Source: a bacterium
GTDB lineage: Bacteria; Patescibacteriota; Minisyncoccia; JBBINA01
Direction of reading: 5' to 3'
Length of the DNA: 64,000 nucleotides
NCBI GenBank assembly: GCA_037444125.1
Contig: JBBINA010000002.1
Coordinates: forward strand, 6,272-70,271
Part shown: positions 4,520-63,102 of the stretch, in pieces
Layout of the letters: every line of letters starts with the position of its first letter
Numbering within the stretch: position 1 is the first letter of the stretch
Notes under the pieces: model-generated
What the model was told of the DNA's origin: nothing
What the model saw: only the letters and a program-made list of their open reading frames with translations
The model's database searches: none
Program-made: the position numbers and the translations under genes

Positions 4520-7604
<3,085 letters not shown>

Positions 7605-7647
7605 CCTTTTATAGACTAAATCAATTTTTTAAAAAAAATAATCAAAA

Positions 7648-24848: not shown

Positions 24849-24930
24849 TTATAAAAGTAGCATAAATATTCGTCTGTGGAACTTAAAATAAGTATAAACT
24901 AGCCAAATTTCAAAAGAACTTTTATTTAAA

Positions 24931-30829: not shown

Positions 30830-31963
30830 TTAACTTCTTATAAGAAGGTTCATGCCATTTTCCTCAGGGTCAGGACCTAAGCACCTTAAACCCAACCCAA
30901 CACTATCAAAAAATGCCGCAGGCGTTTCAATTAAGCTCTTCCGCAATTTAGAATCTAAAGACAGACTGGAAGTATCAATATTGTTAATTTCAAAAGGATC
31001 CGGAACAACAGCTTTAACCTGATAATTCGATTCAAAATATTCTTTTAATCCCTTTACAGACGCAAATTTGCCAATCAAAAATATTTCATTAATTTTGTTT
31101 TTGTGGCTACCACTAATAGAACTATAATAATGCAACAAGCGGCTAGTTTCAGTGCGTACATTTTCAATAAAATCAACTAAATTTTTCTGAATTTGTAGAT
31201 TCTCAATTTGTCTTTGAGATTTTTGCTCAATACCATCTGTTAAAAATGTACTAATAATATATTCTTTATTCAAATTAGAAATCTTGCCAATATGATTTAT
31301 AGTATTAATTATTTTTTCTTTTAGACGATGAGTAACTAAAATCTTTCCCTTTTGAATAATGGCTATAACCACATAAGAAAAATCCATAATTATTAACAGA
31401 TAATTCTTGTCTATATGTATTATGGGCCTTAAGGCTCTATTTATTTCTTCTATAATTATAGGTAAAACTATCTTAGCCACCCCAAGATTATTGAAAGCGC
31501 CAATAATATTCTGTGCCTGATGTTTTGGCACCGCCGCCACCGATAATTCAATCATATCTTTTTCCTCATCTATATTATAATCATATAAAAGCTCGCTAAT
31601 CCTAAAAGGGAAATGTTTAGACAGTTCAACGGTTAAGAATTCGTTAATGTTTTTTTTCTTAAAAAAAGCGCTATCATATTTAATCAAATCTTGTAAAACA
31701 GGCAATTCCGGAACTAAAAGCACAACATTACGATCCACAAAGTTAAACCGCTTGATAAATTGCATAAAATCATAAGACAAAGCTGTCTTTTCAAAATTAA
31801 AAGTTGGGTACTCAAAAAACTTGTAAATCAGTCTGTTCAAAATATAATGACTGCTGCCTTTTTTTGTCAAACTCATAACTTTCAATTCATGTTGGCTTAA
31901 AACCAAAGGTACAATACTAGGCAGAGCCTGTTTAAATAAAAATAATCTTAAATTTTCAAACAT
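30830..31963 (-). CDS. pilM: PilM-like type IV pilus assembly protein (actin-like ATPase fold)
   Basis: C-terminal IFLIGKFASVKGLKEYFESNYQVKAVVPDPF resembles the PilM GGGA...P.V..NPF region. Last gene of the pilus cluster. Confidence 0.45.
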   Translation of the reverse strand: MFENLRLFLFKQALPSIVPLVLSQHELKVMSLTKKGSSHYILNRLIYKFFEYPTFNFEKTALSYDFMQFIKRFNFVDRNVVLLVPELPVLQDLIKYDSAFFKKKNINEFLTVELSKHFPFRISELLYDYNIDEEKDMIELSVAAVPKHQAQNIIGAFNNLGVAKIVLPIIIEEINRALRPIIHIDKNYLLIIMDFSYVVIAIIQKGKILVTHRLKEKIINTINHIGKISNLNKEYIISTFLTDGIEQKSQRQIENLQIQKNLVDFIENVRTETSRLLHYYSSISGSHKNKINEIFLIGKFASVKGLKEYFESNYQVKAVVPDPFEINNIDTSSLSLDSKLRKSLIETPAAFFDSVGLGLRCLGPDPEENGMNLLIRS

Positions 31964-31995
31964 ACAAAGCGACCTTAACTTTATAAAATTAATGA

Positions 31996-32466
31996 TTAAA
32001 AGGAGTCTACCTCCTCAATTTTTTCCAATTTATATCTTTGTTCTGCCCCATTTGCATCTATTTTTTTAATAGTCGCCAAAAAATTTCTCTGAACGCTCCC
32101 TGATATTCCTGTTGTTTTTATATACTTATTATCAAAACTGCTTTCAACAGGTAAAATTAAGCAAGTCATATCAGGTGATATAGCAATATTTTCATTGCCG
32201 ATGTAACTTATATTGTTTCTAAAATTAAGCAGAGCAATATCCATACACGAAACACCAGCATAATAACTTTTATGGTAAGCTATTTTCTCTGGCAGTAAAA
32301 GCATCGTAGATATCAAACTTTTCATTGTTGTTAGAAGTATGGCTGAAGAAATAGAAAAAATTATTATAATTGTAAGAAGTAATATTTGGCCAGAACTATA
32401 AAATGGTAAACTTATTTTTTTGTTCCAAATCATTATTTTACTGTTGGTCTTAAGATAAAATCCCAC
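31996..32466 (-). CDS. hypothetical membrane protein in the pilus cluster (possible PilN/PilO-like or minor pilin)
   Basis: Single N-terminal TM. Context only. Confidence 0.3.
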   Translation of the reverse strand: MGFYLKTNSKIMIWNKKISLPFYSSGQILLLTIIIIFSISSAILLTTMKSLISTMLLLPEKIAYHKSYYAGVSCMDIALLNFRNNISYIGNENIAISPDMTCLILPVESSFDNKYIKTTGISGSVQRNFLATIKKIDANGAEQRYKLEKIEEVDSF

Positions 32467-33554
32467 TTAATGAATTTCTTTGAATAAGAATCAATACGAA
32501 CTGCTGGTAAACTATCGTTTATTGACCCTGAACTTGAAAGAATAATCTTATCATTTGTTTCAGCGTTTATTACTTCTAAAGTACCCTCTAAGAGAACCAA
32601 CCCTCCAGACGACAACTGTATAACCGCTTCTTTATTGTTTTTTATTAAAATAATATTAAATCGACTATCTTGTTTAGGTAAATCCTCAGCTATAGCAAAA
32701 GCGCGAAAAGTTATCCCTTCATTATTAGTAATAAATAAAGAATTGGGAAAGCTTTGCTCTTCAAGCAATGAAGTTTTATAACCTTCGTAAACTAATATTT
32801 CATCTTTTTCTTTAACCGGCAATAAATTTTTAAGTGGGAATTCTCTAATTTCGCCAGCTTCACTACGGAAAATCTTACCTTCGCCAACAAAATTAGTAAT
32901 TCTAAAATCGCCCCTAGACATCTCTAAACTTTTCTCCTCATTAACTATTTGAAAATCATCCATATAAGCAAATTCTTCATCAATATACACTTTAACCTTC
33001 CAAACACCAATAAAACTTTTTTCATCCCGACCTTCACTCTTAAGTTCATTAAAGTTTAACATATCGCTTATCCAATAATAGATAAAGTGATCAATACCAG
33101 TTTCTAAAGGTGGCCTAGTTTTAACTGAATATTCTTTTATTAATAAACCAGATGGGTCATACCACTCCCACCTAACCAGATGCTGATCTTTGATGAAAAA
33201 TTGGCTATTGGTAATCCTCAGCCAGCTATAAATATACTTTGTCTTATTAATATTAAAGACATTAGCTCTACCAAGAGGCAAGCCGTTATCTGGATTTATT
33301 TTCGAGACAAAAGCATAATCCCAAACAACAATTTTTTCCACTGATTTTAAATTCGGCTTATTTTCTTGTTCGCTAGCTTTTGATTTTAAGGAAAAGTCAT
33401 TATAAAACTTTTTTGCCGCATAATAATATATAACTTTTATGCCAATAGCTAATAAAAAAGAGACTAAAGCCGCGCCCACAAACAATCTTGCAAGTATATC
33501 GCTTAAGGGAAATTTTTTCTTAACTTGACTTTTCTTTTTTCTTCTTTTTGTCAT
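32433..33554 (-). CDS. hypothetical bitopic membrane protein in the pilus cluster
   Basis: Basic N-terminus, one TM, beta-rich extracytoplasmic domain. No family recognised. Confidence 0.35.
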   Translation of the reverse strand: MTKRRKKKSQVKKKFPLSDILARLFVGAALVSFLLAIGIKVIYYYAAKKFYNDFSLKSKASEQENKPNLKSVEKIVVWDYAFVSKINPDNGLPLGRANVFNINKTKYIYSWLRITNSQFFIKDQHLVRWEWYDPSGLLIKEYSVKTRPPLETGIDHFIYYWISDMLNFNELKSEGRDEKSFIGVWKVKVYIDEEFAYMDDFQIVNEEKSLEMSRGDFRITNFVGEGKIFRSEAGEIREFPLKNLLPVKEKDEILVYEGYKTSLLEEQSFPNSLFITNNEGITFRAFAIAEDLPKQDSRFNIILIKNNKEAVIQLSSGGLVLLEGTLEVINAETNDKIILSSSGSINDSLPAVRIDSYSKKFIKWDFILRPTVK

Positions 33555-33565
33555 ATAGATTTTGA

Positions 33566-35374
33566 TTACATCTTTTTGTAATATGCGTTTTTAACCATTA
33601 CGCCTCCGGCAAAATAATGGCCTAAGTCAGTTTTGAGAGTATATGTTCTCACCCATATCTTCCTCTTAGATATCTGTGTAACCTTTTGAAGCACTAGCTT
33701 GCTATTTTCGCTATCTAAGATTGTCAAAAAATCACCTACTTTAATATCCCGCGCAGGCAGCCAAGCATCATTAACCCAAACTAAATGATTACCGGTTAAC
33801 TCAAGATCAAAACTATCTCCTTTAAGTCGATAAATAGTTAAGCTTGAGGGTTCTTTTGACCAAACGGCCTCTACTGTTTGATTAATAATATGCCCTTCTT
33901 TAAAGCCATAGATTGTATCTTTAGACCTTATATCTTCTATTTTCTTACCCGACCCTGAAATTATAGTGTATCCAATTACGCTTCCCCCTCCACCACCACT
34001 TCCTGGAGGCGGTGGTTCATCAGAAGGTGGCGGTTCTTCTATGTCGCTACAACGTATACCAATACATTCGCATCGAATAAATGGTCGACATAAACAATCT
34101 TCGCCAATACATTGGTCAATAAATACTCTAACTTCTACCTGCCTACTGATTTCGCTATTATCCCCATAACAAGTTAAATTATAAGTTGTAGTATACAATG
34201 GACTTACTTGCTGTGAACCCATAACAGGCTTATTGCCGCTCCATCCTCCTGAAGCAACACAAAAATTAGTATTAGACGACGACCAAATTAAAGTAGAACT
34301 TTCTCCCTTTTGAATACTAGTTGGATCAGCGCTAAATGTTAATGTAGGTGGTAGAGGATTAATTTTAATCTGGCAGCTGGTGGAAACAGTTTGCGTGCCA
34401 GAACTTACTTGCACTGTAGCTGTGTAATTCCCTGAGCTTGAAAATGATTTAGTGCAGGACGAATTACTTCCTGTGCAAGCTCCTGACCAGGAATAAGTAT
34501 AAGTTCCTGTTCCTCCTGAAGCTGAGGCAGTAAAGGTAACTGGTTGATTGACTAGGGCAGGATTGGGTGAAGCAGAACAAGAAACGCTGAGTCTAGGGAT
34601 AACCCTTACTACCACTGATTCAACACTGCTGCCGCCTTCTCCAGCGCAAGATAAAATATAGGTTGTAGTCAGAGTAGGTTTAATTATTTGTGTTCCGCTT
34701 GTATTTTGAGCTTCCTTCCAGCCTCCGGAAGCACTACAGCTATCAGCATATTGCGTTGACCAAACCAGAATAGAACTGTCGCCTTCCACAATAACATCAG
34801 GGCTAGCTGAAAAAGTGATTACAGGCGGCGGGACTAAAACAATAATAGTTTCATCTTCCGGGAAACTACTATAAGTCTGAGAAGATTCAACAGACTTATT
34901 GTCTTTTTTGAAAGTAATTTTCAAATCTATTTTAATATCTTTACTGCCGGGATCATTAGAAATATTAGTAAAATTTAGCGACTCAACCAGAAAATAATTT
35001 GCATTTATTTTTTTCCTCACATAACTTTGACCTGCTCCTTCTTCAAGATATAAATCATTATTAACCGTGGAAAAAATAGTTGGGTCGCGCACTGATTCAC
35101 TATATCTTAATATTAACCTGTTACTTGTGCTAGCTGGAAGCGGCTCCAAAACAAAATCTGCCTCTTTAATTTTATTTTCAATAAGATTATAAATTGATTC
35201 AAGATCATCGGATAACTCCTTCTCTATCCTAATATCATGCGCCTTGGGAAAAAATGTCAAAAACGAACCTATGACGCTTACAGCAATAATTGAAAAAATA
35301 CCAAGCGCAATACTCACTTCCATTATAGTAAAACCGTTTGTTTTCAGTTTGCAATAATCTCTGTCTTTCATCAT
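33566..35374 (-). CDS. type IV pilin-like protein with Ig-like repeats, Cys-rich/Pro-Gly linker and C-terminal Hint (intein/Hedgehog-like) domain
   Basis: N-terminal prepilin motif NGFTIMEVSIALGIFSIIA. Two copies of an about 85-aa repeat (TFSA.P..I..G.SS.L.WS...C.ASGGW...TTY.L.C) flank a PKD-like repeat (YTYSWSG). The C-terminus has Hint blocks: S465 VIGYTIISG (A), LTGNHLVW (B, TxxH), DIKVGDFL, VRTYTLKTDLGHYFAGGVMVKN (F/G). Confidence 0.55.
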   Translation of the reverse strand: MMKDRDYCKLKTNGFTIMEVSIALGIFSIIAVSVIGSFLTFFPKAHDIRIEKELSDDLESIYNLIENKIKEADFVLEPLPASTSNRLILRYSESVRDPTIFSTVNNDLYLEEGAGQSYVRKKINANYFLVESLNFTNISNDPGSKDIKIDLKITFKKDNKSVESSQTYSSFPEDETIIVLVPPPVITFSASPDVIVEGDSSILVWSTQYADSCSASGGWKEAQNTSGTQIIKPTLTTTYILSCAGEGGSSVESVVVRVIPRLSVSCSASPNPALVNQPVTFTASASGGTGTYTYSWSGACTGSNSSCTKSFSSSGNYTATVQVSSGTQTVSTSCQIKINPLPPTLTFSADPTSIQKGESSTLIWSSSNTNFCVASGGWSGNKPVMGSQQVSPLYTTTYNLTCYGDNSEISRQVEVRVFIDQCIGEDCLCRPFIRCECIGIRCSDIEEPPPSDEPPPPGSGGGGGSVIGYTIISGSGKKIEDIRSKDTIYGFKEGHIINQTVEAVWSKEPSSLTIYRLKGDSFDLELTGNHLVWVNDAWLPARDIKVGDFLTILDSENSKLVLQKVTQISKRKIWVRTYTLKTDLGHYFAGGVMVKNAYYKKM

Positions 35375-35493
35375 AAATAAAAACCAAAACCCATCTATTT
35401 TTTATATTATAATTATTATAAATAATTAAAGTTTGTTTTAAAGACATTTTAAAACCATTCATAACTACCGTCGCTTTCTAAAACAATTTTCAT

Positions 35494-35943
35494 CTAATCT
35501 TCGCTCAACTTAGCAATATACAAACTCACAGTTGATTTAGGTTTTATTCCAGAAACAAAGTCTTCTTTCGTATAAATATTGATAATCACTTTTTTTAAAT
35601 CCTTTTTTTCATCTTCAATAATCACTTCTTTAATAAAATATTTATCGTCCTGTTCTAAACTAAAAGGTACAAGAACCCAATCTTTCAATAAATGGTCAAA
35701 CCTAAGATAATATCTTCCGGCGACAAGGTTATCAAATGATTTTTTCCTTAATGAAAGAATGGCCTCAGCGTTTTGTCTGAGTTCAATTGATACCAAAAAA
35801 TTTTTATAATTAATAGCGCTACTAACGCCTACTTCAATTAAAAAATAAATTATTAAAAACGAAAAAGCGGTTAAAATACCAACTGCGATTAATATTTCAA
35901 TAAGAGAAAAGCCATTTTTTCTATTAAACATTCTATTAAGCAT
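35494..35943 (-). CDS. type IV (pseudo)pilin
   Basis: N-terminal KNGFSLIEILIAVGIL class III signal / N-methylation motif. Confidence 0.7.
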   Translation of the reverse strand: MLNRMFNRKNGFSLIEILIAVGILTAFSFLIIYFLIEVGVSSAINYKNFLVSIELRQNAEAILSLRKKSFDNLVAGRYYLRFDHLLKDWVLVPFSLEQDDKYFIKEVIIEDEKKDLKKVIINIYTKEDFVSGIKPKSTVSLYIAKLSED

Positions 35944-35944
35944 A

Positions 35945-36403
35945 TCATTGGATATAATTGGTTAAACCAAGATGATTAATCTGAATTTTTTTTGTTTTAT
36001 CACCAAAAACTATAATAAACTCCACCTGATCATAATCTTTAAGATAACCTGTGCGTCTTTCAAACACAAATTCAGTTATACTACCAACAATCTTTATTGA
36101 AGAAGGAATGACAAACTTCTCATCTTTAGCTGAGTTTCTCGATAAATAACTTTGTCCCTCAAAAATATAGTATTCGCCATCAAAAATTTTTATACCATAT
36201 TCAGTATTGCGATAAATCGCATACGATCGTGCCTTATTAAGCTGAATAGAGAAATCTTGCACAAAACTATCAAGGTTCTGACTTCTATAGAAATTAACCG
36301 ATGTTAGAAACAAGATGCCAATTAAACTAGACAAAATAAACATGACTATAGCCATTTCTATTAATGAAAACCCCCCAATCTCTCTCATACTATTATTCAA
36401 CAT
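35945..36403 (-). CDS. type IV (pseudo)pilin
   Basis: N-terminal IGGFSLIEMAIVMFIL prepilin motif. Confidence 0.7.
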   Translation of the reverse strand: MLNNSMREIGGFSLIEMAIVMFILSSLIGILFLTSVNFYRSQNLDSFVQDFSIQLNKARSYAIYRNTEYGIKIFDGEYYIFEGQSYLSRNSAKDEKFVIPSSIKIVGSITEFVFERRTGYLKDYDQVEFIIVFGDKTKKIQINHLGLTNYIQ

Positions 36404-37463
36404 TAAGTACTTGGATAAACCGTAAAATCGGCAAAAGCACAGAAAAAGCTAAAAACAAAACCACTCCTCCCGTAAACATCAACATAAATGGTTCAAGTAA
36501 ATTGGTAACTTTTAATATAAAATCTTTGATTTCGCCTTCATAAAATTCACCTAGATACCTAAAGGAATTTTTTAAATTACCAGTCTCCTCGCCAATTTTT
36601 ATAACCTCAACCGCTAGTTCATCAAAAAAAAATGTGTTTGCTTCTTTTAATGATTCGGACAAATACTTTCCGCCCACAACTTTATGATTAATCTCGTCCA
36701 AAATATTTCGAAAATACAAATTAGCACTATTCTCTTCTATTACCCTTAATCCCACATTCAAGCTCAAACCACTCTTTAAAGTAATGGCAAGATTGTTATA
36801 AAAAATTGACAAAACGGTATTTTTCAAAAAGTTACCGACAATAGGCAGTTTAAAAACAAAACGATGAACTAAAAATCTAAACTTAAGGACAGTAGCATAA
36901 AGAAAATAAAATATGGCGCTTAAAACAAAAATGCCGATGATAAAAGAAAAAACAAGAAAAGGCGAACTTAAAATCCTGCCCAAGGCAAGCAAAATTCTAG
37001 TTTGCATTGGCAGCTCCATTGGAAATTGCTGAAAAACGCTAAGCAGTTTTGGGAAAACATAAAAAATAATAAATAAACAAATCGCTAAAACTAGCCCCAG
37101 AACCAACAAGGGATATGTCATAGCATTAATAATCTCCTTTTCCAACTTCAGATTTTTCTCGTAATACTTCTTTAATATCTCTAGACCATCCTCTAGCTTG
37201 CCTGAAGACTCGGCAATTCTGATAATATTAATAAACATCTTATCAAACAATTTGGGAAATTTAGCAAAAGAATTAGCTAAAGTATTACCTCGTTTAATCG
37301 AAATAGAGATTTCCCCCAATTCATTATTAATACTGTTGATATATCTTTGTTTTGTTAAAAAATCAAAAGCCATCAAAATAGAAACGCCTGATTTAAGCAA
37401 AAGCATAAGGTTATGAACCAAAAAAATCTTTTTCTCAAAATTAATTTTTGGCCTAAACAACAT
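36393..37463 (-). CDS. pilC: type IV pilus platform protein PilC (GspF family)
   Basis: Polytopic membrane protein with two GspF-like repeats. Lies immediately downstream of pilB. Confidence 0.8.
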   Translation of the reverse strand: MLFRPKINFEKKIFLVHNLMLLLKSGVSILMAFDFLTKQRYINSINNELGEISISIKRGNTLANSFAKFPKLFDKMFINIIRIAESSGKLEDGLEILKKYYEKNLKLEKEIINAMTYPLLVLGLVLAICLFIIFYVFPKLLSVFQQFPMELPMQTRILLALGRILSSPFLVFSFIIGIFVLSAIFYFLYATVLKFRFLVHRFVFKLPIVGNFLKNTVLSIFYNNLAITLKSGLSLNVGLRVIEENSANLYFRNILDEINHKVVGGKYLSESLKEANTFFFDELAVEVIKIGEETGNLKNSFRYLGEFYEGEIKDFILKVTNLLEPFMLMFTGGVVLFLAFSVLLPILRFIQVLNVE

Positions 37464-37466
37464 ATT

Positions 37467-39176
37467 TTATTCAAGAGTAAGTCTGATAACCTCTTCGAAA
37501 GTAGTAATACCCTGCTTAATCTTCTTCGCTGCATCATCTAACATAGTTTGCATCCCGTTTTTATTTATAGCTATTTTATTGATTTCGTCAGAATTGGCTC
37601 TTTTCATAATTAAAGATCGTATTAAATCATTTGTTTCCAAAAGCTCAAAAACGCCGGTTCTACCATAATAACCAGTGAATGAACATTTTTGACAACCCTC
37701 GCCCCGATATATGTATTTAATCTTGTTGCGGATAAGCTTTTCAAGAATTTTTTTAGACAACCCGCTTAAATATTTGTATTTCTTTTTATAGATTGAAATC
37801 TGGCTTTCTTTCTTGCATCTATCACAAATTTTCCTAACAAGCCTTTGACCAATTACTAAATTTATTGATGAAGCAATTAAAAATGGCTCAACGCCAAAAT
37901 CTAATAAGCGAACAAACGATGAGGCAGCATTATTTGTATGAAGCGTAGAAAGCACCAAATGGCCAGTTAACGAAGCATTAATGGAGATAAATGCTGTATC
38001 ACGGTCCCGTATCTCGCCCACCATAATAATATTCGGGTCTTGCCTTAAAATCGAACGAAGCCCTTTTGCAAAAGTAAGATTAACGGTTTCGTTTACCTCT
38101 ATTTGGTTAACCATAGAAATTGTATATTCAATTGGATCTTCTATGGTCATAATATTTACATTTTCATTATTAAGTCGTCTGGCTATACCATATAAAGTGG
38201 TTGTCTTGCCCGAACCTGTGGGTCCTGTCGATAAAATCATACCATAAGATTTAGTAATGTTTCTTTCTATTATTTCCAATTTAGATTTATCTAGTCCCAT
38301 ATTATCTAAACTCAATCCCTCTTTCTCCTCTTTTAAAATTCTAAAAACTATCTTCTCGCCATAATAAACAGGTATAATCGATACTCGTATATCAAAATTT
38401 TCTTCTCCAAACTTATAACGAAACTTTCCGTCTTGAGGCCTTAAATGCTCATCAATACGCATCTTTGATAATATTTTTACACGCATCAGTAATAATTTAA
38501 GAGCGTACAAAGGAATTTCAAAAATTTTATGCAGTAAACCGTCAATCCTGAATCTTAAATAAGCAGAGTTTTCCTGAGGTTCAATATGCAAATCTGAGGC
38601 TCTAGCCTGAATGGAATATTTAATCAAATTGTTTAAAAGGCTTATAATAGTATCGTCAGGTATATTTTCCTCTTTGGTTTCTTTTATTTTATCTATATTA
38701 GAATGAATTAACTCGTATATGGAAAAACCTGCTCCAGCAACTGAACTTACAACTCTAACTTTAGCACTTGAATCATCGATAAACTTCTTTAAAAATTTCT
38801 CAATATAAGCAGTAGGTGCATAATACATTCTCACATTTTTATTTATTTTGGCTTTAATCAGTTCAGCCAAAAGCTCGTTATTTGGTTTACTTGTAATTAT
38901 CTTCACTGTTTCATCCTCAATATCAATAGGAATTATCTTTCTGTATTTTAAAAACTCTATAGGAAAAAGTTCAAGAACTTCCTGTTTAATAAATTTAATC
39001 GTTTCAGGATCAATATAGTTAATAGAAAATGCGCTCCGAGCAATAAAATCTAAAAGGCGAAAGTCGATTTGCTTTTTGGCTCGTTCAATTATTTTATCTA
39101 ATAACTCAGGCTTTCTTGAAAATATTGCAGACTCTCTAGCAATTTTATCTTTTTCCTCAGTAGTTAAATCTGACAA
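37467..39176 (-). CDS. pilB: type IV pilus assembly ATPase PilB (GspE family)
   Basis: Walker A GPTGSGKTTT, Asp/His boxes, and a C-terminal tetracysteine motif CDRC...CQKC. Confidence 0.9.
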   Translation of the reverse strand: MSDLTTEEKDKIARESAIFSRKPELLDKIIERAKKQIDFRLLDFIARSAFSINYIDPETIKFIKQEVLELFPIEFLKYRKIIPIDIEDETVKIITSKPNNELLAELIKAKINKNVRMYYAPTAYIEKFLKKFIDDSSAKVRVVSSVAGAGFSIYELIHSNIDKIKETKEENIPDDTIISLLNNLIKYSIQARASDLHIEPQENSAYLRFRIDGLLHKIFEIPLYALKLLLMRVKILSKMRIDEHLRPQDGKFRYKFGEENFDIRVSIIPVYYGEKIVFRILKEEKEGLSLDNMGLDKSKLEIIERNITKSYGMILSTGPTGSGKTTTLYGIARRLNNENVNIMTIEDPIEYTISMVNQIEVNETVNLTFAKGLRSILRQDPNIIMVGEIRDRDTAFISINASLTGHLVLSTLHTNNAASSFVRLLDFGVEPFLIASSINLVIGQRLVRKICDRCKKESQISIYKKKYKYLSGLSKKILEKLIRNKIKYIYRGEGCQKCSFTGYYGRTGVFELLETNDLIRSLIMKRANSDEINKIAINKNGMQTMLDDAAKKIKQGITTFEEVIRLTLE

Positions 39177-54727: not shown

Positions 54728-57700
54728 TTATCCTCCTCCTTCTGCATTGCTATTTTTTAATTCCTGTAGGTTCTCTTCTGTTTCTTGCATCTCTTCGTTC
54801 GCGCTTGTGTTTTGCGAATTTGTATTTTGCTCATTATAAGAATCTTGAACACTGTTATCAATTTGCTCATTATTTGTGTTTGGCAAATTTGTATTCTGAT
54901 TATTAACTATTGTTTCTTCGTTTTTATCATCTTGGCTTTGATAATTAGAGTTTCCCTCACTCTCTTGCGAAGACAAGTTTTCTGATGAATATCCATTTAA
55001 ATCCGAAGAACTTGTACCTTTAGGATAGATACCCGATTTTTCAAGCAACTGCCTAAGCTCCTCTTTTGTTATGCAAATATCCTCAAGACAAATTTTTTGA
55101 GCTTCAATTTCCTTAGCAGAAAGCCTTTCAAAAAGCCAATTGCCTGCAGTTTTGATTGTGCCCGTAAGTTGCGAAATAGCATCCTTAAGATAGGTTAAAA
55201 GCAGTGTCAAAAATGATTGATTATTAACTTGTAAGTTAACTTCTACCCCATCTTGAATTAGATTGCCGTTTTGGCTGATAGCCAGTTTCAAGCCTTCAAT
55301 TTGTTTTGAAAGTTCTTGGATGGCGTTAACTAAAAATGGAGTAAAGCCGATATAATTTAAACTTTTTGAACCATCAGATGCAGTTAAAACAAGTTCAGGA
55401 ATTATCTCTTCTACTTCTTGAGCTCCAAAGCCAAAACGCAAAGCATTATCAGTTTGGTTTTTCCAACGATAGATAATTGGATTTAAAGCCATAATTTTTT
55501 CCAAAGAACCTGAAAGAGAACCAATTACCTCCTTTGCTCTAATATCAGAGGAACAAATTAAAGCGGTATTAGTTGGATTAATAGTGCAGGTGCCATTTGC
55601 GTCAGTAAAACCAGCTACATCGCCATCAGTACTGCGAGAAACATGCAAAAGATAGCCAGGGGCGGTCGTCCCGATGCCGACATTACCACCAAGTGGTGCC
55701 AATAATAAATTAGTGCCTTGCTCTGGTATGATTTTAAACCCTCCAGTTCCAAGTTGTATATATCCATATCTGGTAAAAGGTCCTCCAGCTGTTGTTTGCT
55801 TCTCAAAGTTTATATACAAATCTTCATTGTTTGAAGCAGTATAACTTTTCCTAAATGTAGCCAATGTTCCCCATTCAGAAACTCTATTGAAAAGGGCATG
55901 ATCAATTACTTCCAAATGCGCCCCCGGGCTCGTCGTCCCGATGCCCAATCTCTTATTCGTATTATCCCAGAATAAATTAGTATTATCTTGAGAAATTGCG
56001 CCTCCTGAACCAGCAAATAAAATTGAACCAATAGTTAATCCTGAAAGATTAAGACCAGAAAAAGTAGGAGAAGCTCCAGTATGAATATCTTGGGGCAAAG
56101 ACAAAGTGACATTTCCGCCAATTACTCTGCCAGTCCCATTGGTGACTGTTATTTGATTGGCTGTACCTAAAATATCTGAAAGAGCAGTCACTCCTGTGCC
56201 GCCATAATTTATTGAAATTGTATTTCCTTGCCAAGTTCCAGAATTAACTATTCCTAAACTAGAAGTTCCAACTATGTTGATAGACTGAGCGTTAAGAACT
56301 CCATTAATAGTAGTAGTTGCTAAGGAAACTTGTCCGCCTGACTGAACTAAAGGACCCGAAAAAGTAGAAGTTGCGCTTCCTACAACAGTCAAAGCACCTT
56401 GAGTTATAATATCTCCGTTCGCATTAACCCTAAACTTCTCTAAATTATTAACAGATAAGCCAAGCAAAGAAAAAGTTGAATCTGCGCTTGTTGGATTTAT
56501 GTATAAAGATGACTCATTTATATTACTAGATGTCGGCTGGTAAGTAATGATTTGTTGTCCGTTTGTGGACAAACTATTTACTGATAAATTTTGAGCATAA
56601 ACTGTATTCCATTTATTTGTATCAGATCCTAAGTTATAAACATTATTAGCTGCCGGAATAAAAGAACCGCCTAATGTTAATACATTATTATCAGGAGAAA
56701 TACTGCTTAATGAATTGATATTTTTACCTGATAAAATCATTTCACCGACTCTTATTTTTGCAGGTATAAGCGAATCATCTTCAAAAGCATTCTTAACGCC
56801 TCCTATGTAACCTAAAACATTTGCAGCTGAAGAAACTGCTACCGGCGCAGATTGATAACCGAATATTGGCAGTGGTATCAATCTATTTCTTTCCTGAAAT
56901 TTTTCAACAAGAGTTTTTAATTGTAAAAGGTCATAGCTTAACTTTTGAAAATGTTCCTTAATATCAAGTAGTTCCTGAAAAATAGACTGGTCTGACGTTT
57001 TATTTAGGCTTAGTACTTTAAGTTCCAAATTTGAAATTCTTTTATTAATGTCACCGATAGAAGAAAAATCACTAATCTTACCACTGTAAAATAAACTATT
57101 TTTATTTGGTTTTGGAGTTTCTTGCCCAATAGTGCCACTAAAATTATTGACCTTTGCTTCAAGAGACAAAAGCTTCTCTTGAAGTTTACCAAGTTCTTGA
57201 CGATTTTCATTTAGATTTTGGCTAACAATTTTTATTAGATTTAATGGGAAATCTAAGCTTAAGGGTGTTTTTATTTGTTGAGAATTTATAAAGTCCGCTA
57301 ACCTGAAAAAGCTTTTAATATTAGAAAGCGCTTTTTGAGAAAAAATTTCTTCTTTATTTATAGCTACTCTTGATTGAACATTTTCTAAAATTTCTTTTAC
57401 TATAGGCCTTACATTGTTTACAAAATTGACTATCAATGTGCTTATATTTTCGTTCAAAATTTCACCAAATTCATTGATATTAATTGGTCTCGTAATGCTT
57501 AAACCGATATTTAACAAATCATTTACTTTGACTACATATCCAGTAGCAAGTCTATCTGTTAAATTAACTGCCTTGCTGAAAATTTTTTCAACCTCTGAAA
57601 ATAATCTGCTAGGCTTTGAAAAATCTGAAAAATAAGCTAAAGTTTCTAATGGTTTAGAATAAAAAAAGGAGAGAACAGATATAACAGCAAAAATACTCCA

Positions 57701-57973
57701 AACAATTTTTAAAATAGGCAAAGAAAGGTCTCTTTGCCAAAAATTTTGCCTAAAAGCAGGAAAAGCGGAAGAAGAAAAATTAATATATTCTCTTACCCAT
57801 TCTTCGGTAGTAAAATAAAAATTGCCTATCTTTACTCCTTTAAGTTTTTTCAATCGAATTAACAGCAATAAATGCTGCCTGGAATAATTAAAAATCTTCG
57901 CAGCTTGCGCTATGGAAATAAATTTTTGGGCTGTTTGGTATATTTTTTGATTTAACTCGCGATCTTTCCCCAT
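54728..57973 (-). CDS. large surface fibre protein: N-terminal HTH (excisionase/MerR-like) + TM + coiled coil + tailspike-like beta repeats + C-terminal S74 intramolecular-chaperone autoprocessing domain + acidic N/Q/E-rich tail
   Basis: HTH-like FISIAQAAKIFNYSRQHLLLLIRLKKLKGVKIGNFYFTTEEWV. TM ILKIVWSIFAVISVLSFFY. GIGTTSPGAHLEV and GIGTTAPGYLLHV repeats. S74 signature SSDIRAKEV...NPIIYRWK...RFGFGAQEVEEIIPELV. Confidence 0.6.
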   Translation of the reverse strand: MGKDRELNQKIYQTAQKFISIAQAAKIFNYSRQHLLLLIRLKKLKGVKIGNFYFTTEEWVREYINFSSSAFPAFRQNFWQRDLSLPILKIVWSIFAVISVLSFFYSKPLETLAYFSDFSKPSRLFSEVEKIFSKAVNLTDRLATGYVVKVNDLLNIGLSITRPININEFGEILNENISTLIVNFVNNVRPIVKEILENVQSRVAINKEEIFSQKALSNIKSFFRLADFINSQQIKTPLSLDFPLNLIKIVSQNLNENRQELGKLQEKLLSLEAKVNNFSGTIGQETPKPNKNSLFYSGKISDFSSIGDINKRISNLELKVLSLNKTSDQSIFQELLDIKEHFQKLSYDLLQLKTLVEKFQERNRLIPLPIFGYQSAPVAVSSAANVLGYIGGVKNAFEDDSLIPAKIRVGEMILSGKNINSLSSISPDNNVLTLGGSFIPAANNVYNLGSDTNKWNTVYAQNLSVNSLSTNGQQIITYQPTSSNINESSLYINPTSADSTFSLLGLSVNNLEKFRVNANGDIITQGALTVVGSATSTFSGPLVQSGGQVSLATTTINGVLNAQSINIVGTSSLGIVNSGTWQGNTISINYGGTGVTALSDILGTANQITVTNGTGRVIGGNVTLSLPQDIHTGASPTFSGLNLSGLTIGSILFAGSGGAISQDNTNLFWDNTNKRLGIGTTSPGAHLEVIDHALFNRVSEWGTLATFRKSYTASNNEDLYINFEKQTTAGGPFTRYGYIQLGTGGFKIIPEQGTNLLLAPLGGNVGIGTTAPGYLLHVSRSTDGDVAGFTDANGTCTINPTNTALICSSDIRAKEVIGSLSGSLEKIMALNPIIYRWKNQTDNALRFGFGAQEVEEIIPELVLTASDGSKSLNYIGFTPFLVNAIQELSKQIEGLKLAISQNGNLIQDGVEVNLQVNNQSFLTLLLTYLKDAISQLTGTIKTAGNWLFERLSAKEIEAQKICLEDICITKEELRQLLEKSGIYPKGTSSSDLNGYSSENLSSQESEGNSNYQSQDDKNEETIVNNQNTNLPNTNNEQIDNSVQDSYNEQNTNSQNTSANEEMQETEENLQELKNSNAEGGG

Positions 57974-58054
57974 TCAAAATCGCGGTCCACAGGCAATATT
58001 ACATTCTTAATATTATAATTTTAAAAAAAAGCATGTCAATAAGTAAATTTAAAC

Positions 58055-58098: not shown

Positions 58099-59976
58099 TT
58101 ATTTAACTCTTATAATCAGTGATTTACTTATTTTTCCGCCAAGACCGCCAAGACCTGAACATGTTAATCGATATGTTGTTTTTTTTGAAGGAGAAACCAT
58201 TTCTGACCCTGAAGGGGGCTTTGTTCCTGACCAACCTTTTGAAGCTTTACAAGAAATGGCATTGGTTGATGACCAAGAAAGAATTGAAGATTCTCCTTTT
58301 TTAATAGTAGTTGGATTAGCGTTAAAAGTAAGAGTGGGTTTCTCTGCTTTTTTTATAATTCTAATTTGGAAAGAATTTAACCATTCTGATTCTGCATTGT
58401 GAGGGTCGATAACTTTTGCTGTTATGAAAAATGTGCCTGTCTTTTTATATTTCTTTTTTTGTAAAAGCTCCTGGCCTTCTCCATTAATCTTAGCTCCAGA
58501 AGTGACTATACTTCCATCACCCCAATCAATAGTTAATTTAAGACTTTTGTCATTATAATCAAATGCTTTAAAATAAAATTCAAGGTTTTTATTAACTTCG
58601 CCGATGCTTGGACCTCTGATAGATATTATTTGAGGAGGAATATTAATTTTAGGTAATTTAGGTCCAAATCTGGCAGTAAGAACCTTGAGAAAATGATTTT
58701 TCCCAACAGGACCAAAATCTGCTACACTCAAATTCCGCATAAGGGAGTACTCTACACTCTTGTACCAATCACTGGCAGTACAACCAGCATAGCAACTAGT
58801 ACCGCTAATCCCTTCCCATTTAGTACAATTACTAACATCACAATTTGGGCTAGTTGATATGTCTCTCCATAAGAAATCCTTGGAAGTACACTCCCTGTTA
58901 TTGCAATTATTATATACATATTCATCCCAAAGACCACCAATAGAATGACCTGCCTCGTGAGCAAAAATATAAGGGTAATCACCGGTATAGATTGGTCCGG
59001 TATTAAACCAGGCCAGTCCTTGTACATTATTATTTTTCATTACAACAACAAGATCAGTAGGACAAACACTAATTAGGTGGGAATAATTAAAACAATTCAT
59101 TATTTTGTTTATTGATGACCCAATGCAATCTGCCTCAAAAGAACTAACATAGTGGACATTAAAACCAGTCCAATATTGATCCAATGGATTTAGCTTGAAG
59201 AATCTTAAGGTTTCTCTGAGAATATCCCAGACAAATTCTGATTCTCCAGCAGTGTTATAATCTTTATCACCAATAAAAGTTATATCATAATTATTAGTGG
59301 GTGGTCCATTATTCAATAAAGTCTTACACTGAGCATTAGCAGCTGCCTTAGCAGAAGAAACGGCAAAAGAAGAGAGATTTTTTGTATTTGTTTTTAAGCT
59401 CTGAGGGGGCCAAAGGGTAGTTTCAAAAAATGGTTTTTGAAGATTGTCTTTTGAATAAATCTGGATTTTCTCACTTTCCTTACTATAAGGGATAGTAATG
59501 TAAAACTCAGTTTTTTCAGGAAAATCTATATTGCCAGAAATATCTCCTTCCTCAAATACTTCAGTAATAATAGCTTCTGAAATATTGAAAGAAGAAGTAT
59601 AAATGATATCTCCTTGCTTGTTAAAAACTTTGAGAATATAGTTATCCTCTGGAAAAATAGGCTGCTCCTGAATATAACCTTTTGAAAATTCAATGTTTTT
59701 AAGAGTAAAAGTTCCGGTTTTATTATCTTTTTCCAAACTAAGTAAATAAATATCCTGGTCAGGTAGATAGATGTTTTGAGTTTTTATTCCCTCTTTTACC
59801 TCTTTAATCTGAGGATTTAGCTCGCTGGAAGTAATTTCAGTCAATTTTTCTAAATAGAAAGTTAAATAGAAATAGATTAATAAACTCAAGATTAAAAAAA
59901 GAAGAATTATTATACCAATGGAAGAAATTAATGACTTTTGTTTTTGGTTCATTATTTTGTGTAAGAGATGATACAT
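58099..59976 (-). CDS. secreted zinc metalloprotease (HExxH) with PKD domain and C-terminal Ig-like repeat
   Basis: N-terminal TM. FAHEAGHSIGGLWDEY zinc-binding motif. TIDWGDGS PKD motif. The C-terminal repeat is homologous to those in the pilin-Hint protein. Confidence 0.65.
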   Translation of the reverse strand: MYHLLHKIMNQKQKSLISSIGIIILLFLILSLLIYFYLTFYLEKLTEITSSELNPQIKEVKEGIKTQNIYLPDQDIYLLSLEKDNKTGTFTLKNIEFSKGYIQEQPIFPEDNYILKVFNKQGDIIYTSSFNISEAIITEVFEEGDISGNIDFPEKTEFYITIPYSKESEKIQIYSKDNLQKPFFETTLWPPQSLKTNTKNLSSFAVSSAKAAANAQCKTLLNNGPPTNNYDITFIGDKDYNTAGESEFVWDILRETLRFFKLNPLDQYWTGFNVHYVSSFEADCIGSSINKIMNCFNYSHLISVCPTDLVVVMKNNNVQGLAWFNTGPIYTGDYPYIFAHEAGHSIGGLWDEYVYNNCNNRECTSKDFLWRDISTSPNCDVSNCTKWEGISGTSCYAGCTASDWYKSVEYSLMRNLSVADFGPVGKNHFLKVLTARFGPKLPKINIPPQIISIRGPSIGEVNKNLEFYFKAFDYNDKSLKLTIDWGDGSIVTSGAKINGEGQELLQKKKYKKTGTFFITAKVIDPHNAESEWLNSFQIRIIKKAEKPTLTFNANPTTIKKGESSILSWSSTNAISCKASKGWSGTKPPSGSEMVSPSKKTTYRLTCSGLGGLGGKISKSLIIRVK

Positions 59977-62313: not shown

Positions 62314-63102
62314 TTATTGGCAAAGCTCAATAAAGAAACTATTAACCAATCTTTGGTATAACTCGTTTGCTGTATATGCTCTCCAACTATCATCAAGAAA
62401 CTCCTCAGGCAATTGAGGATCTTCTTTTAAAATTGCCAAATACTGAATCTGCCCAAGGAAAGAATGTTTTAAATCTTTAGCCAAACTGAAATTTGTAATA
62501 AACTCGTTATATAAATCATTTACCATCTCAGTTCGCCAAATATTATTGGCGAATTTTTTATAATCAGTAGCTCCAAGAACGTCCCCTTTAAACAAATTAA
62601 CAAAAGATCTATCTATATTAAGTCGGCTCAATGCTCTTAATAAATCTTCAGAGTAATCAAAGACACTAATCCACACTGAATCATGCAATAAACCAAATTT
62701 TCTATCTTTCAAAAATTTCCTCAGGGCTTCTCTTTTTGGCTTTAATTCCTCGGGAATATCAAAAGAAACAAAGTAAAAACAACCATCCCATCTTCTTTTG
62801 CCATAGTACCTAGGTATAATATTCCTAATTCGATTAAAACCTTTTTGGTTTAAAACAAAATTTTCTGATAAATAATCCTTAAAAAAAGATGAAGCTATGC
62901 TCCGCTCGAGCCCAAAATAACCAGTAAATTTTTGAAATAAGTCTTTACGAGATAAATTAAGTTTACTACCTTGCAAAAAAGAATCGAGTATACCAAAAAA
63001 GTAAAGGAACAAATCTATTTTTTTAAATCCTAGACTTCTAGCAACTTCTTCTAAATGAGAACTCTCTGTTAAATTATTCATATAAAATAAATGCGACAGC
63101 AA
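62314..63102 (-). CDS. hypothetical protein, possibly PaaX-like regulator (internal Cas2-like fold segment)
   Basis: RRWDGCFYFVSFDIPEELKPKREALRKFLKDRKFGLLHDSVWI resembles the PaaX middle domain. Weak. Confidence 0.3.
   Translation of the reverse strand: MLSHLFYMNNLTESSHLEEVARSLGFKKIDLFLYFFGILDSFLQGSKLNLSRKDLFQKFTGYFGLERSIASSFFKDYLSENFVLNQKGFNRIRNIIPRYYGKRRWDGCFYFVSFDIPEELKPKREALRKFLKDRKFGLLHDSVWISVFDYSEDLLRALSRLNIDRSFVNLFKGDVLGATDYKKFANNIWRTEMVNDLYNEFITNFSLAKDLKHSFLGQIQYLAILKEDPQLPEEFLDDSWRAYTANELYQRLVNSFFIELCQ

Follow-up and report, generated by a model that had tools for sequence, protein, structure and literature searches.

ToxR/CadC and RodZ are familiar proteins in which a cytoplasmic HTH at the N-terminus is followed by a single TM helix and then by an extracytoplasmic domain, the HTH being of the OmpR or the XRE type; the cytoplasmic XRE-type HTH of RodZ binds MreB. 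We know of no ToxR/CadC or RodZ protein that carries a fibre or an S74 domain, nor of one whose HTH serves as an anchor common to dozens of unrelated ectodomains. Xis and BldC, two small DNA-binding proteins relevant to what follows, bind DNA cooperatively, as multimers. Among fibres, the closest solved relatives of the protein described here are the mosaic adhesive trimeric (MAT) fibres of Bdellovibrio bacteriovorus that belong to the S74 subgroup, such as Bd3182 (Caulton et al. 2024, PMC10769870). Bd3182 is a chromosomal bacterial fibre that undergoes S74 self-cleavage, blocked by the substitution S782A, and the N-terminus of the MAT fibres comprises a signal peptide and a beta-rich domain, conserved and ~130 aa long, thought to bind a diderm surface element (PMC10769870). 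Self-cleavage by S74 domains depends on trimerisation (PMC3742443, PMC10769870), and in MYRF trimerisation through the same S74/ICA domain is required for full DNA-binding activity (PMC3742443).

We have analyzed a gene within a 64-kb stretch of DNA from an ultra-small, CPR-type bacterium of the Patescibacteria (64,000 nt, here called the window). An earlier note had observed that the protein encoded at 54728-57973 combines an S74 domain, one TM helix and an N-terminal HTH, and this is confirmed, with two corrections. Judged by sequence, the fibre/S74 part is a member of a huge and previously recognised family, while the new part is the HTH-TM anchor, which the same comparisons place as specific to the Patescibacteria lineage. 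We found no published description of an excisionase-like HTH anchor common to unrelated Patescibacteria surface proteins. The features are listed below.

58012..58039, reverse strand: sigma-70-type promoter match TTGACA-16-TATAAT, 12/12 (consensus match only)
54728..57973, reverse strand: complete CDS of 1081 aa, with ATG start and stop codon at 54728-54730
57731..57931, reverse strand: winged HTH of excisionase/MerR (HTH_17) type, residues 15-81, predicted cytoplasmic (lineage HMM, AF2, Foldseek)
57656..57727, reverse strand: single TM helix, residues 83-106, type II signal anchor, predicted N-in (hydropathy, charge, AF2)
56777..57613, reverse strand: predicted extracytoplasmic stalk, almost all-helical, residues 121-399 (AF2 secondary structure, heptad shuffles)
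55550..56776, reverse strand: G/T/S/N-rich beta fibre shaft, residues 400-808, with a beta-rich domain at 649-799 (composition, motifs, relatives, AF2, Foldseek)
55268..55549, reverse strand: Peptidase_S74 intramolecular chaperone/autoprotease domain, residues 809-902, including a long helix 874-902 (Pfam, AF2, Foldseek)
55532..55549, reverse strand: SDIRAK, residues 809-814, with predicted catalytic Ser809, Arg812 and Lys814 (Pfam, alignments, literature roles)
55019..55267, reverse strand: conserved post-S74 extension, residues 903-985 (AF2, alignment of relatives)
54731..55018, reverse strand: low-complexity acidic N/S/E/Q-rich tail, residues 986-1081, presumably disordered (composition)

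The promoter match lies ~38 nt upstream of the ATG, and supports both the annotated start and a transcription unit of the gene's own. All five motifs named previously are present at the places given for them: SSDIRAK at residue 808 (nt 55532-55552), NPIIYRWK at 831, GFGAQEVEEIIPELV at 848, GIGTTSPG at 677 and GIGTTAPG at 766. A single NCBI record, on an 80-kb contig, is identical to the 1081-aa protein, and one of its nine word-index matches is Parcubacteria-named.

The S74 domain is genuine. Pfam Peptidase_S74 matches residues 809-863 with 52.2 bits (cut-off 22, E 7.5e-14) and the catalytic motif is intact, while tail-fibre families of PHROGs match residues ~787-900. The domain is modelled by AF2 with pLDDT 82-96, and a Foldseek search with the model finds the ICA of MyRF (7dc3, E 4.7e-5, TM-score 0.58-0.63) and also the endoNF chaperone (3gw6). 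The nucleophile had been taken to be S808, but the serine of the dyad is S809, with K814 as the base, because position 1 of the Pfam model falls on residue 809 and S809 aligns with the serine of SDERLK in 8jov; the roles of the dyad and the arginine follow PMC3742443 and PMC10769870. In the aligned relatives S809 and K814 are invariant (116/116), and 60 of the 116 retain R812. Cleavage is predicted at the Ser808-Ser809 bond, which would make S808 the new C-terminus.

The shaft places the protein in a family of 49,284 cluster representatives, whose best-matching stretches lie inside residues 410-980; the class has been recognised before (PMC10769870). Both GIGTT motifs are capping loops of a type described in that study, and the repeats reported ahead of the S74 domain indeed lie in a fibre-like region. 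In the AF2 monomer the pLDDT is 74-90 for residues 649-799 and below 50 for 400-640, and Foldseek matches the model to the beta-helices of the Bdellovibrio fibres 8ond, 8onc, 8ojn and 8oml. The tip that precedes the cleavage site, NVGIGTTAPGYLLHVSRSTDGDVAGFTDANGTCTINPTNTALIC, is highly conserved throughout the family. This counts against a specificity-determining receptor-binding tip, which would normally be less conserved. The stalk has no homologue among the best 150 family members. The long coiled coils proposed for it are borne out in part: heptad periodicity is significant only in helices 241-278, 304-323 and 329-364 (the observed value was reached by 5, 12 and 1 of 2000 shuffles, respectively), and residues 121-231 are helical with no clear heptad pattern.

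The acidic tail said to follow the S74 domain is present, but not directly after it, as a conserved extension of ~80 aa (~903-985) lies between. In the AF2 model this extension is built from a helix (918-952), a Cys hairpin (960-969, ICLEDICITK) and a second helix (970-979). At least 22 of the best 150 relatives align as far as residue ~979, and the sister protein P0023 has a similar motif, LCVGSVCVNEEQLKELLEKAGI. N, S and E make up 21%, 15% and 14% of residues 981-1081, whose net charge is -16; comparable acidic or S/T-rich tails are carried by the sisters P0031, P0051 and P0141.

At the other end of the protein, residues 83-105 are the only window in the whole sequence with a Kyte-Doolittle value above 1.6, peaking at 2.19, and AF2 places a helix at 86-106. 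Residues 1-80 have a net charge of +8. The single TM helix and its predicted N-in orientation are thus upheld, the topology being called by simple hydropathy and charge rules rather than by a dedicated predictor. In 58 of 159 sequences examined, mostly fibre/S74 members, the HTH-TM is missing and a hydrophobic segment within the first 40 residues stands in its place, which indicates that the shaft is extracellular.

The N-terminal HTH is real, and of the excisionase/MerR type as had been suggested. It scores 20.5 bits with Pfam HTH_17, below the cut-off of 27, but 65.9 bits (E 4e-20) with an HMM built from Patescibacteria loci, and sister proteins match HTH_17 at up to E 1.4e-11. By these profile scores it is one of a Patescibacteria-specific subfamily of HTH_17 type. 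AF2 gives a beta-alpha-alpha-beta-beta-alpha topology with pLDDT 95-98 (strands 18-20, 47-49 and 52-56; helices 21-28, 32-40 and 57-81). The best Foldseek match is the Xis structure 4j2n (rmsd 1.5 Å, TM-score 0.70, probability 1.00), and others are RdfS (8dgl) and BldC (6ama/6amk). Judging by the fold, the conserved basic residues of the wing, the charge of +8 and the clustering of three copies that trimerisation would bring, DNA binding is the most likely function of the HTH. Binding could be weakened in this member, since wing residues near-invariant in the family are changed (R51N, N52F, W53Y) and the HTH lies ~4 residues from the TM helix in the AF2 model.

How general is this anchor? Of the 80 best HTH loci, 79 are labelled Patescibacteria or 'bacterium', and in 73 the same near-invariant HTH and one TM helix precede the ectodomain. 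The ectodomains that follow include collagen, Laminin_G_3 (lectin), LVIVD and FG-GAP (propellers), pectinesterase (beta-helix) and S74 fibres. At least four other proteins (P0023, P0031, P0141 and P0051) have the complete HTH-TM-fibre-S74 layout, so that the architecture is not the unusual one-off it was thought to be. In alignment A2 six HTH columns are invariant and 17 nearly so, against a mean column identity of 9%, and for two paralogues from one Nealsonbacteria genome the identity is 83% within the HTH but 42% in the 820 residues after it that can be aligned. These loci and alignments indicate that the HTH-TM is a lineage-wide anchor module, common to many other large surface proteins.

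The reading that we favour, with a probability of about 0.65, is a chromosomal, trimeric, membrane-anchored adhesion fibre of N-in/C-out topology, with S74 self-cleavage and an HTH-TM anchor. Insertion by the TM helix 83-106 is suggested by hydrophobicity, charge and a folded N-domain that lacks a signal peptide. Outside the cell, the S74 domain (809-902) would nucleate trimerisation, and the shaft (400-808) and the coiled coil (~241-364) would then fold from the distal end inwards, as is established for endosialidase, T5 pb1, MyRF and Bdellovibrio Bd3182. Once the trimer was correctly folded, Ser809 and Lys814 would cut the chain, with Arg812 stabilising the oxyanion; the motif is seen, and cleavage is what it predicts. 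Residues 809-1081, comprising the chaperone, extension and acidic tail, would be shed outside the cell, leaving a mature fibre of residues 1-808 whose exposed distal beta-helix tip may bind a host cell or a surface ligand. Adhesion is suggested by the parallel with the MAT fibres of Bdellovibrio and by the episymbiotic lifestyle of cultivated Patescibacteria; attachment to a host or surface, as proposed earlier, remains a likely role given that the nearest solved relatives are prey-recognition fibres. Three Xis/BldC-like HTH domains would remain in the cytoplasm, directly beneath the membrane. We think that their target is common to all carriers and that the HTH is not a gene-specific sensor-regulator, although this is the least certain step. 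If the scheme is correct, the protein has the build of a phage tail fibre with the cell membrane in place of the virion.

The earlier note also proposed that the HTH couples the state of the fibre to transcription. In a one-component signalling protein like ToxR or CadC, fibre binding or mechanical load would change how the HTHs are oligomerised or oriented and so switch specific genes, and the episymbiont would have a direct contact sensor. Formally the layout is that of ToxR: a DNA-binding fold lies in the cytoplasm at the N-terminus, and one TM helix leads to a large domain outside. S74 trimerisation would cluster three HTHs, in keeping with the trimer that MYRF needs for full activity and with the multimeric binding of Xis and BldC, the closest folds. 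Yet the HTH belongs to another class than that of OmpR, and it is near-invariant among paralogues whose ectodomains are unrelated (two of them share one 640-kb genome), whereas sensor-regulators normally diversify their recognition helices. There are also stand-alone HTH-TM proteins of ~105-140 aa with almost no ectodomain, and no conserved operator was identified. Such near-invariance suits a single shared target better than it does gene-specific regulation; coupling to transcription remains speculation, and we consider it unlikely. The earlier interpretation is supported in part: in its domains, topology, context and attachment, and not in its one-off architecture, nucleophile or transcriptional coupling.

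A single conserved partner would also suit the near-invariance of the HTH if this were a protein-docking domain, as in RodZ, that ties surface proteins to pilus or secretion machinery or to a cytoskeletal element; the tether would then serve the localisation or export of large surface proteins. Consistent with this, a juxtamembrane motif PPxNLPIE between HTH and TM helix is conserved in many members, and the HTH of the fibre protein lies almost against the membrane. A pilus cluster lies 16 kb from the fibre gene, and three of four sister genes adjoin type IV pilus genes, one of them sitting between pilB/pilC/pilin and prepilin peptidase, but pilus genes are not adjacent in most loci and the association has no genomic baseline. 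Moreover, every close structural match is a DNA-binding protein, the domain is strongly basic, and the RodZ HTH is XRE-type, not HTH_17. Docking thus appears distinctly unlikely.

It is very improbable that the HTH-TM is a long cleavable leader, cut after the TM helix by signal peptidase, following Sec-dependent insertion, to give a secreted or wall-attached fibre and a residual HTH-TM stub. The plain hydrophobic N-termini of the 58 relatives and the stand-alone HTH-TM proteins could be read in this way, and a possible small-residue site, TLA/Y, can be read from the sequence after the TM helix. This site is weak, however, an 80-residue folded basic domain is unlike any known signal-peptide n-region, and a folded HTH kept in hundreds of proteins is hard to reconcile with a discarded leader.

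The chromosomal, non-phage setting of the gene, as described previously, is clear. The window carries genes for 23S/5S and 16S rRNA. Each of the 38 neighbouring ORFs scanned across it is a housekeeping, cell-envelope or pilus gene, with ribosomal-protein and murein genes among them and no phage gene; sister genes also lie in cellular contexts. The rRNA genes are unlinked, and the GC content is 32%; together with the lineage-restricted HTH and the Parcubacteria-named match, these traits point indirectly to Patescibacteria. A prophage remnant or mis-binned phage contig with an ordinary tail-fibre gene is effectively refuted by this setting, by the gene's own consensus promoter, and by a TM anchor and cell-lineage-specific HTH almost absent from viruses (one HTH locus in 2.9 million viral contigs, 103 in genomes), even though all PHROGs matches to the C-terminal part are to phage-annotated families and the S74 region recurs in 444 phage records, with 22-36% identity among the matches listed. 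A membrane-bound transcription factor like MYRF, its DNA-binding domain freed by S74 cleavage, is excluded by the predicted topology: the two have a DNA-binding domain, S74/ICA and TM helix in common, and the MyRF ICA is a top structural match, but the order is HTH-TM-...-S74 here and DBD-ICA-TM in MYRF (PMC3742443), and cleavage ~700 residues past the TM helix, across the membrane from the HTH, cannot free the HTH and would release the tail.

MYRF/MrfA (PMC3742443, PMC3742440, PMC3828593) is nonetheless the only well-studied combination of a DNA-binding domain, S74/ICA and one TM helix, and its ICA-driven trimer likewise assembles three DNA-binding domains. The fold of these is Ndt80-like in MYRF, a eukaryotic protein, and Xis/MerR-like here. 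The HTH shares its winged-helix structure with small excisionase/MerR proteins (mycobacteriophage Pukovnik Xis 4j2n, RdfS 8dgl and Streptomyces BldC 6ama; rmsd 1.5-2.0 Å over 47-53 columns). Those are free in the cytoplasm, whereas here the fold makes up the N-terminus of a membrane protein and belongs to a lineage-restricted, near-invariant subfamily. With phage tail fibres and tailspikes such as the K1F endosialidase endoNF and the T5 L-shaped fibre pb1 (PF13884) the protein shares the S74 Ser-Lys dyad and arginine and the beta-helical shaft before them, and the same logic of trimer folding followed by self-cleavage that exposes the tip is expected. In place of a virion, a phage neighbourhood and a virion-attachment N-terminus, it has a membrane anchor and an HTH.

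The best Foldseek matches are the MAT structures (8ond at 2.4e-5, and 8onc/8ojn), with an identity of only 15-21% in the structural alignments. The MAT fibres come from a different phylum; the present fibre differs from them in starting with a cytoplasmic HTH, which is followed by one TM helix and by a helical/coiled-coil stalk, and in having a further conserved extension and acidic tail after the S74 domain. Both are chromosomal, non-phage proteins, in which a long fibre ends in an S74 domain with an SDxxxK motif, and a beta-helix and V-G-x-x-x-x-P-type capping loops precede the cleavage site. In both, middle and tip domains are exchanged as a mosaic among paralogues, and Bdellovibrio, too, must recognise other cells.

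The fibre protein is encoded by an ATG-initiated open reading frame of 1081 amino acids, for which the coordinates of the earlier note are confirmed, and every motif cited there is found where it had been placed in the protein. A 12/12 match to the sigma-70 consensus (TTGACA-16-TATAAT) lies ~38 nt upstream of the ATG, within a gap of 125 nt that separates the gene from the end of its upstream neighbour. Taken together, the promoter match and the gap make the annotated start credible, and hence also the N-terminal domain. Of the 17 promoter-like sites found in a scan of 4.5 kb it alone matches the consensus perfectly, and the total is at the level of the shuffled region (mean 16.4). The protein encoded directly upstream has an N-terminal hydrophobic segment, as read from its translation, and a weak match to Peptidase_M64 (IgA-peptidase-like, 28.4 bits); this protein too may be secreted or surface-exposed.

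Features in and next to the fibre gene (window positions)
54728-57973 (-), fibre gene, 1081 aa
55019-55267 (-), post-S74 extension, residues ~903-985
55553-55588 (-), residues 796-807, bounded by Cys796 and Cys807
58012-58039 (-), sigma-70 consensus match
58099-59976 (-), gene directly upstream, 625 aa

The search with the Peptidase_S74 HMM (PF13884) that the earlier note had proposed returns 52.2 bits against a cut-off of 22, covering residues 809-863 and the full profile (1-58). In addition, 15 PHROGs families match residues ~787-900, of which 11 are annotated as tail or tail-fibre. The catalytic motif S-D-x-R-x-K is present as S809-D-I-R812-A-K814, a Ser-x4-Lys dyad with arginine at +3; the dyad and an oxyanion-stabilising arginine have been described for endosialidase and for MYRF, the eukaryotic membrane-bound transcription factor with an S74-type ICA domain (PMC3742443). 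In a profile alignment S809 and K814 are invariant (116/116 relatives), while R812 is the sole variable position of the three, with arginine kept in 60/116, the fibre protein included. The nucleophile had been placed at S808. The PF13884 profile begins at S809, however, and S809 is aligned with the serine of SDERLK in the solved fibre 8jov; with the conservation of the dyad, this makes S809 the predicted nucleophile and S808-S809 the predicted scissile bond. An AlphaFold2 monomer model of residues 400-1000 has pLDDT 82-96 over 809-899, and Foldseek matches this region to the MyRF ICA (7dc3, E 4.7e-5, probability 1.00, TM 0.58-0.63) and the endosialidase chaperone (3gw6, probability 0.84-0.91); the modelled fold resembles that of the solved ICA/CIMCD domains. 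The S74 domain is genuine and looks catalytically competent. The predicted shed fragment comprises residues 809-1081, and its 273 aa equal the median distance from catalytic serine to C-terminus in the 58 relatives whose serine was located by a strict motif regex. Cys807 (in C-[ST]-S-D) directly precedes the predicted cleavage site, and both it and Cys796 (in GTCTINP) are kept in most close relatives whose sequences were inspected, a conservation that suggests a possible disulphide or cysteine ring at the tip of the mature fibre.

Residues 400-808, ahead of the S74 domain, are rich in G, T, S and N. With the full protein as query, a word-index search gave S74-level matches only, since low-complexity words dominated, and with residues 1-140 it gave no match; the fibre family was revealed only by exhaustive search and local re-searching of its matches. 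At E<=1e-3 the latter search yields 49,284 cluster representatives, including 129 at E<=1e-30, and every one of the best-matching stretches falls inside residues ~410-980. In the monomer prediction residues 400-640 came out unmodelled, and a domain at 649-799 has pLDDT 74-90. The structures closest to the model overall are beta-helix regions at the C-termini of Bd2133, Bd3182 and Bd1334 of Bdellovibrio bacteriovorus (8ond, 8onc/8ojn and 8oml; Foldseek E 2.4e-5 to 1.6e-3). The GIGTTSPG/GIGTTAPG repeats, rightly singled out before, are the same kind of element as the capping-loop motif of MyRF and of the mosaic adhesive trimeric (MAT) fibres of that bacterium.

The stalk, residues 121-399, is predicted to be almost all helical, and no homologue of it is found among the 150 best family members. 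The 'long coiled coils' reported there stand for 241-278, 304-323 and 329-364, where only 5, 12 and 1 of 2000 shuffles, respectively, reach the observed heptad periodicity, but not for 121-231, where the periodicity is no better than that of the shuffles. Similarly, the acidic tail exists (the final 100 residues are N/S/E/Q-rich with a net charge of -16), but it does not directly succeed the S74 domain, as the extension of residues ~903-985 intervenes. AlphaFold2 gives this extension a helix (918-952), a two-Cys hairpin (960-969, ICLEDICITK) and a last helix (970-979, EELRQLLEKS), and the alignment is continuous through it in at least 22 of the 150 best relatives. The sister protein P0023 has a similar sequence, LCVGSVCVNEEQLKELLEKAGI. 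In other relatives the place of the extension is taken by another C-terminal two-Cys module, GITLYDxxTGxPYC...G.C.

At the other end of the protein the single TM helix (83-106) is borne out, residues 83-105 (Kyte-Doolittle peak 2.19) being the only strongly hydrophobic segment; the 80 residues ahead of the helix have a net charge of +8. The preceding domain had been described as an excisionase/MerR-like HTH. It is sub-threshold in the HTH_17 HMM (PF12728; 20.5 bits, under the cut-off of 27, E 5.8e-4), and a phmmer search of PDB sequences with residues 1-82 gave no match at E<=10; the fold relationship was found by structure comparison. Using the lineage alignment, AlphaFold2 predicts a beta-alpha-alpha-beta-beta-alpha winged helix with pLDDT 95-98. 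The top Foldseek match is the Xis of mycobacteriophage Pukovnik (4j2n, rmsd 1.5 A, TM 0.70, probability 1.00), followed by the excisionase RdfS (8dgl), BldC (6ama) and TraN, and then by MerR-family regulators at low probability; the matches are DNA-binding proteins throughout. An HMM built from 80 genomic loci recognizes the N-terminus with 65.9 bits (E 4e-20); together with the sister N-termini and the shared consensus described below, this establishes that the HTH is real.

How general is this arrangement? Among the 150 best fibre relatives, four (P0023, P0031, P0141 and P0051) have an N-terminal match to residues 15-66, and these sisters repeat the full HTH-TM-fibre-S74 layout, so that the architecture is not unique. 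The five proteins are mosaics, in which the HTH, the GIGTT repeats and the block of pre-S74 and S74 sequence are common and the stalk is not; a BNR sialidase-like domain occurs in one of them and a collagen-like stretch in a second. A profile of the five N-termini finds 332 proteins. In the 120 of these that are listed the consensus is YISLxEAAKYCxYSQEYLSLRARQGKLKAVKIGRNWVTTKEWLEEY, and source names giving an organism belong to a Patescibacteria lineage in every case.

Scanning 185,579 species, with one genome each, yields 103 confirmed HTH loci. The best 80 comprise 72 named as Patescibacteria/CPR, seven named 'bacterium' only and one labelled Gammaproteobacteria; 73 of them have the HTH right at the N-terminal end, with one hydrophobic helix no more than ~200 residues further on. 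The proteins carrying this HTH-TM anchor range in these 80 loci from ~130 to >3000 aa. Among 42 long members analysed with Pfam, HTH_17 is found in 10 at E<=1e-3 (best E 1.4e-11), and the ectodomains are diverse.

Pfam ectodomains in 42 long anchor members (number of proteins)
Collagen, 5
Laminin_G_3, 3
LVIVD, 2
FG-GAP, 1
pectinesterase, 1
S74, 1

Alignment columns of the HTH show little or no variation, against a mean column identity of 9% over the whole alignment. The same is seen in two paralogues of one complete 640-kb Nealsonbacteria genome, where the HTH is 83% identical and the rest 42% (820 alignable residues). The fibre protein has the consensus HTH at its N-terminus and one TM helix within ~200 residues, as the module is defined, and is a divergent member, with 20-38% identity to 59 other members and the substitutions R51N, N52F and W53Y. 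A PPxNLPIE motif between HTH and TM helix is kept in many members and is degenerate in the fibre protein. Some carriers of the HTH have two tandem copies, and there are stand-alone HTH-TM proteins of ~105-140 aa with a short external tail ending in a conserved IIPxKVIEIxR. A literature search of incomplete coverage found nothing relevant on S74 fibres or the HTH-TM anchor in Patescibacteria, and the anchor is apparently a conserved, undescribed module of the whole lineage.

Scanned ORFs across the window, 38 in all, place the fibre gene in a cellular context.

Other features of the window (window positions)
4528-7761 (+), 23S/5S rRNA genes
17193-20971 (-), type I restriction-modification: specificity subunit and N6 methylase with HsdR-N-like domain
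21135-21207 (-), tRNA-Ala, ~2 kb from the 16S gene
23349-24854 (-), 16S rRNA gene
30830-39176 (-), type IV pilus cluster: PilB/T2SSE, PilC/T2SSF, two N_methyl pilins, PKD protein, PilM
62314-63102 (-), PaaX-like gene (PaaX_M Cas2-like domain and PaaX_C)
across the window, murein synthesis and division genes: MurC, MurB, PBP, FtsW, MraW
across the window, wall-polymer/glycan genes: WecG/TagA, LCP, amidase/SpoIID, glycosyltransferases, Wzy-like ligases
across the window, translation/transcription genes: ribosomal protein L11, NusG

The window has a GC content of ~32%, and its rRNA genes are unlinked, lying 16 kb apart; both features, like the lineage-restricted HTH, indicate a member of the Patescibacteria. 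The 23S match is ~145 nt longer than the Rfam model, and an insertion is possible. The restriction-modification genes lie between the tRNA/16S region and the remainder of the window. None of the 38 ORFs is a phage gene, nor does the window contain a second S74 fibre; with the cellular ORFs and rRNA genes, the chromosomal, phage-free setting claimed before is upheld. The sister fibre genes lie in cellular contexts as well. That the fibre gene is a prophage remnant is rejected on this context and on the occurrence of the HTH module in just 1 of 2.9 million viral contigs.

The type IV pilus cluster and the fibre gene are 16 kb apart. Among the four sister genes, three adjoin pilus genes (loci L082, L083 and L085), and in L085 the fibre gene sits between pilB/pilC/pilin and the prepilin peptidase. 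Pilin-like ORFs occur within 9 kb of 23 of the 80 anchor loci, peaking 3-7.5 kb off and not adjacent, a frequency given without a genome-wide baseline. We regard linkage of HTH-anchored genes to type IV pili as a lead only. The PaaX-like gene is 4 kb upstream of the fibre gene, and a PaaX_M protein is the immediate neighbour of the sister P0051 (locus L086, 3528-4007).

The domain inventory, catalytic motif, folds, single TM helix, recurrent architecture and cellular context can be regarded as established. From the known biology of S74 domains, the C-terminal chaperone would nucleate a trimer outside the cell; once the shaft had folded, S809 and K814 would cut the S808-S809 bond, and shedding of the C-terminal fragment would expose the fibre tip. 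Topology rules would place the HTH inside the cell and the shaft outside, as would relatives with a plain N-terminal hydrophobic segment instead of HTH-TM (58/159 sequences examined). By analogy with MAT fibres and from the episymbiotic lifestyle, the fibre may adhere to a host or surface.

The role of the HTH is the least certain part of the mechanism. Its fold, its charge and its conserved basic wing residues favour binding to DNA, and the fact that it hardly varies from carrier to carrier is more in keeping with a single shared target than with gene-specific regulation. In rival explanations the HTH would signal in a ToxR-like manner, dock to a protein in the manner of RodZ, or form with the TM helix a cleavable leader. 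The most far-reaching reading is of a lineage-wide system of Patescibacteria, in which host-contact surface proteins (fibres, lectins, propellers and collagen-like stalks) are wired to the chromosome via the one conserved Xis/BldC-like HTH, and assembly or engagement of the ectodomains clusters the HTHs and alters DNA binding. We consider this joint claim unlikely, with a probability of roughly 15%. Were it true, clustering in the fibre protein would come from S74-driven trimerisation outside the cell, and the cells could, without two-component systems, control genes in response to contact or anchor the nucleoid where they attach.

To our knowledge, little is known of how ultra-small Patescibacteria recognize and attach to hosts, type IV pili alone having been implicated experimentally so far. 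The fibre gene shows that these bacteria encode phage-like fibres with predicted self-processing, of the type used in prey recognition by Bdellovibrio, and the protein is a concrete candidate adhesin. Throughout the radiation its anchor heads many giant surface proteins that are otherwise unrelated to one another, and the fibre protein leads to a conserved, apparently undescribed tie of the cell surface to a DNA-binding fold. In Patescibacteria, where classical signalling systems are very few, binding of the HTH to DNA would link the surface directly to the nucleoid, and binding to a protein would mark sorting or anchoring machinery not known so far; either way, the YSQEYLSLRARQGKLKAVKIGRNW motif is a simple sequence handle for cataloguing the CPR surface proteome.

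The closest known systems are the MAT fibres, 21 chromosomal phage-like trimeric proteins of which 13 end in an S74 domain with SDxxxK (PMC10769870). Bd3182 self-cleaves at S782, and the S782A substitution abolishes cleavage; the capping-loop motif is V-G-G/N-pi-x-x-P-x-x-x-L and is found in MyRF too (PMC10769870). The fibre protein is likewise chromosomal and phage-like, with a beta-helix, GIGTTxPG capping loops and an S74 end, its trimer being predicted only. All 21 MATs begin with a signal peptide and then a conserved beta-rich N-terminal domain of ~130 aa (PMC10769870), whereas these are absent from the fibre protein, which has the HTH (15-81), the TM helix (83-106) and the all-helical region 121-399. 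It would work like a MAT fibre, yet is outside the MAT family as defined. Phage tail-fibre genes differ in lying among phage structural and morphogenesis genes. In MYRF the order is DBD-ICA-TM (PMC3742443), in contrast to HTH-TM-fibre-S74; release of the HTH by self-cleavage as in MYRF is ruled out, because the S74 domain lies beyond the TM helix. If the HTHs are indeed wired to the chromosome, these minimal episymbionts would have a prokaryotic counterpart of MYRF logic in which the HTH is not released. The S74 fibre itself is of a known kind, ordinary for the class of MAT-like cellular fibres, and NCBI labels such fibres in Parcubacteria 'tail fiber domain-containing protein'. What is new, with no counterpart found in the searchable literature, is the HTH-TM anchor and its pairing with an S74 fibre.
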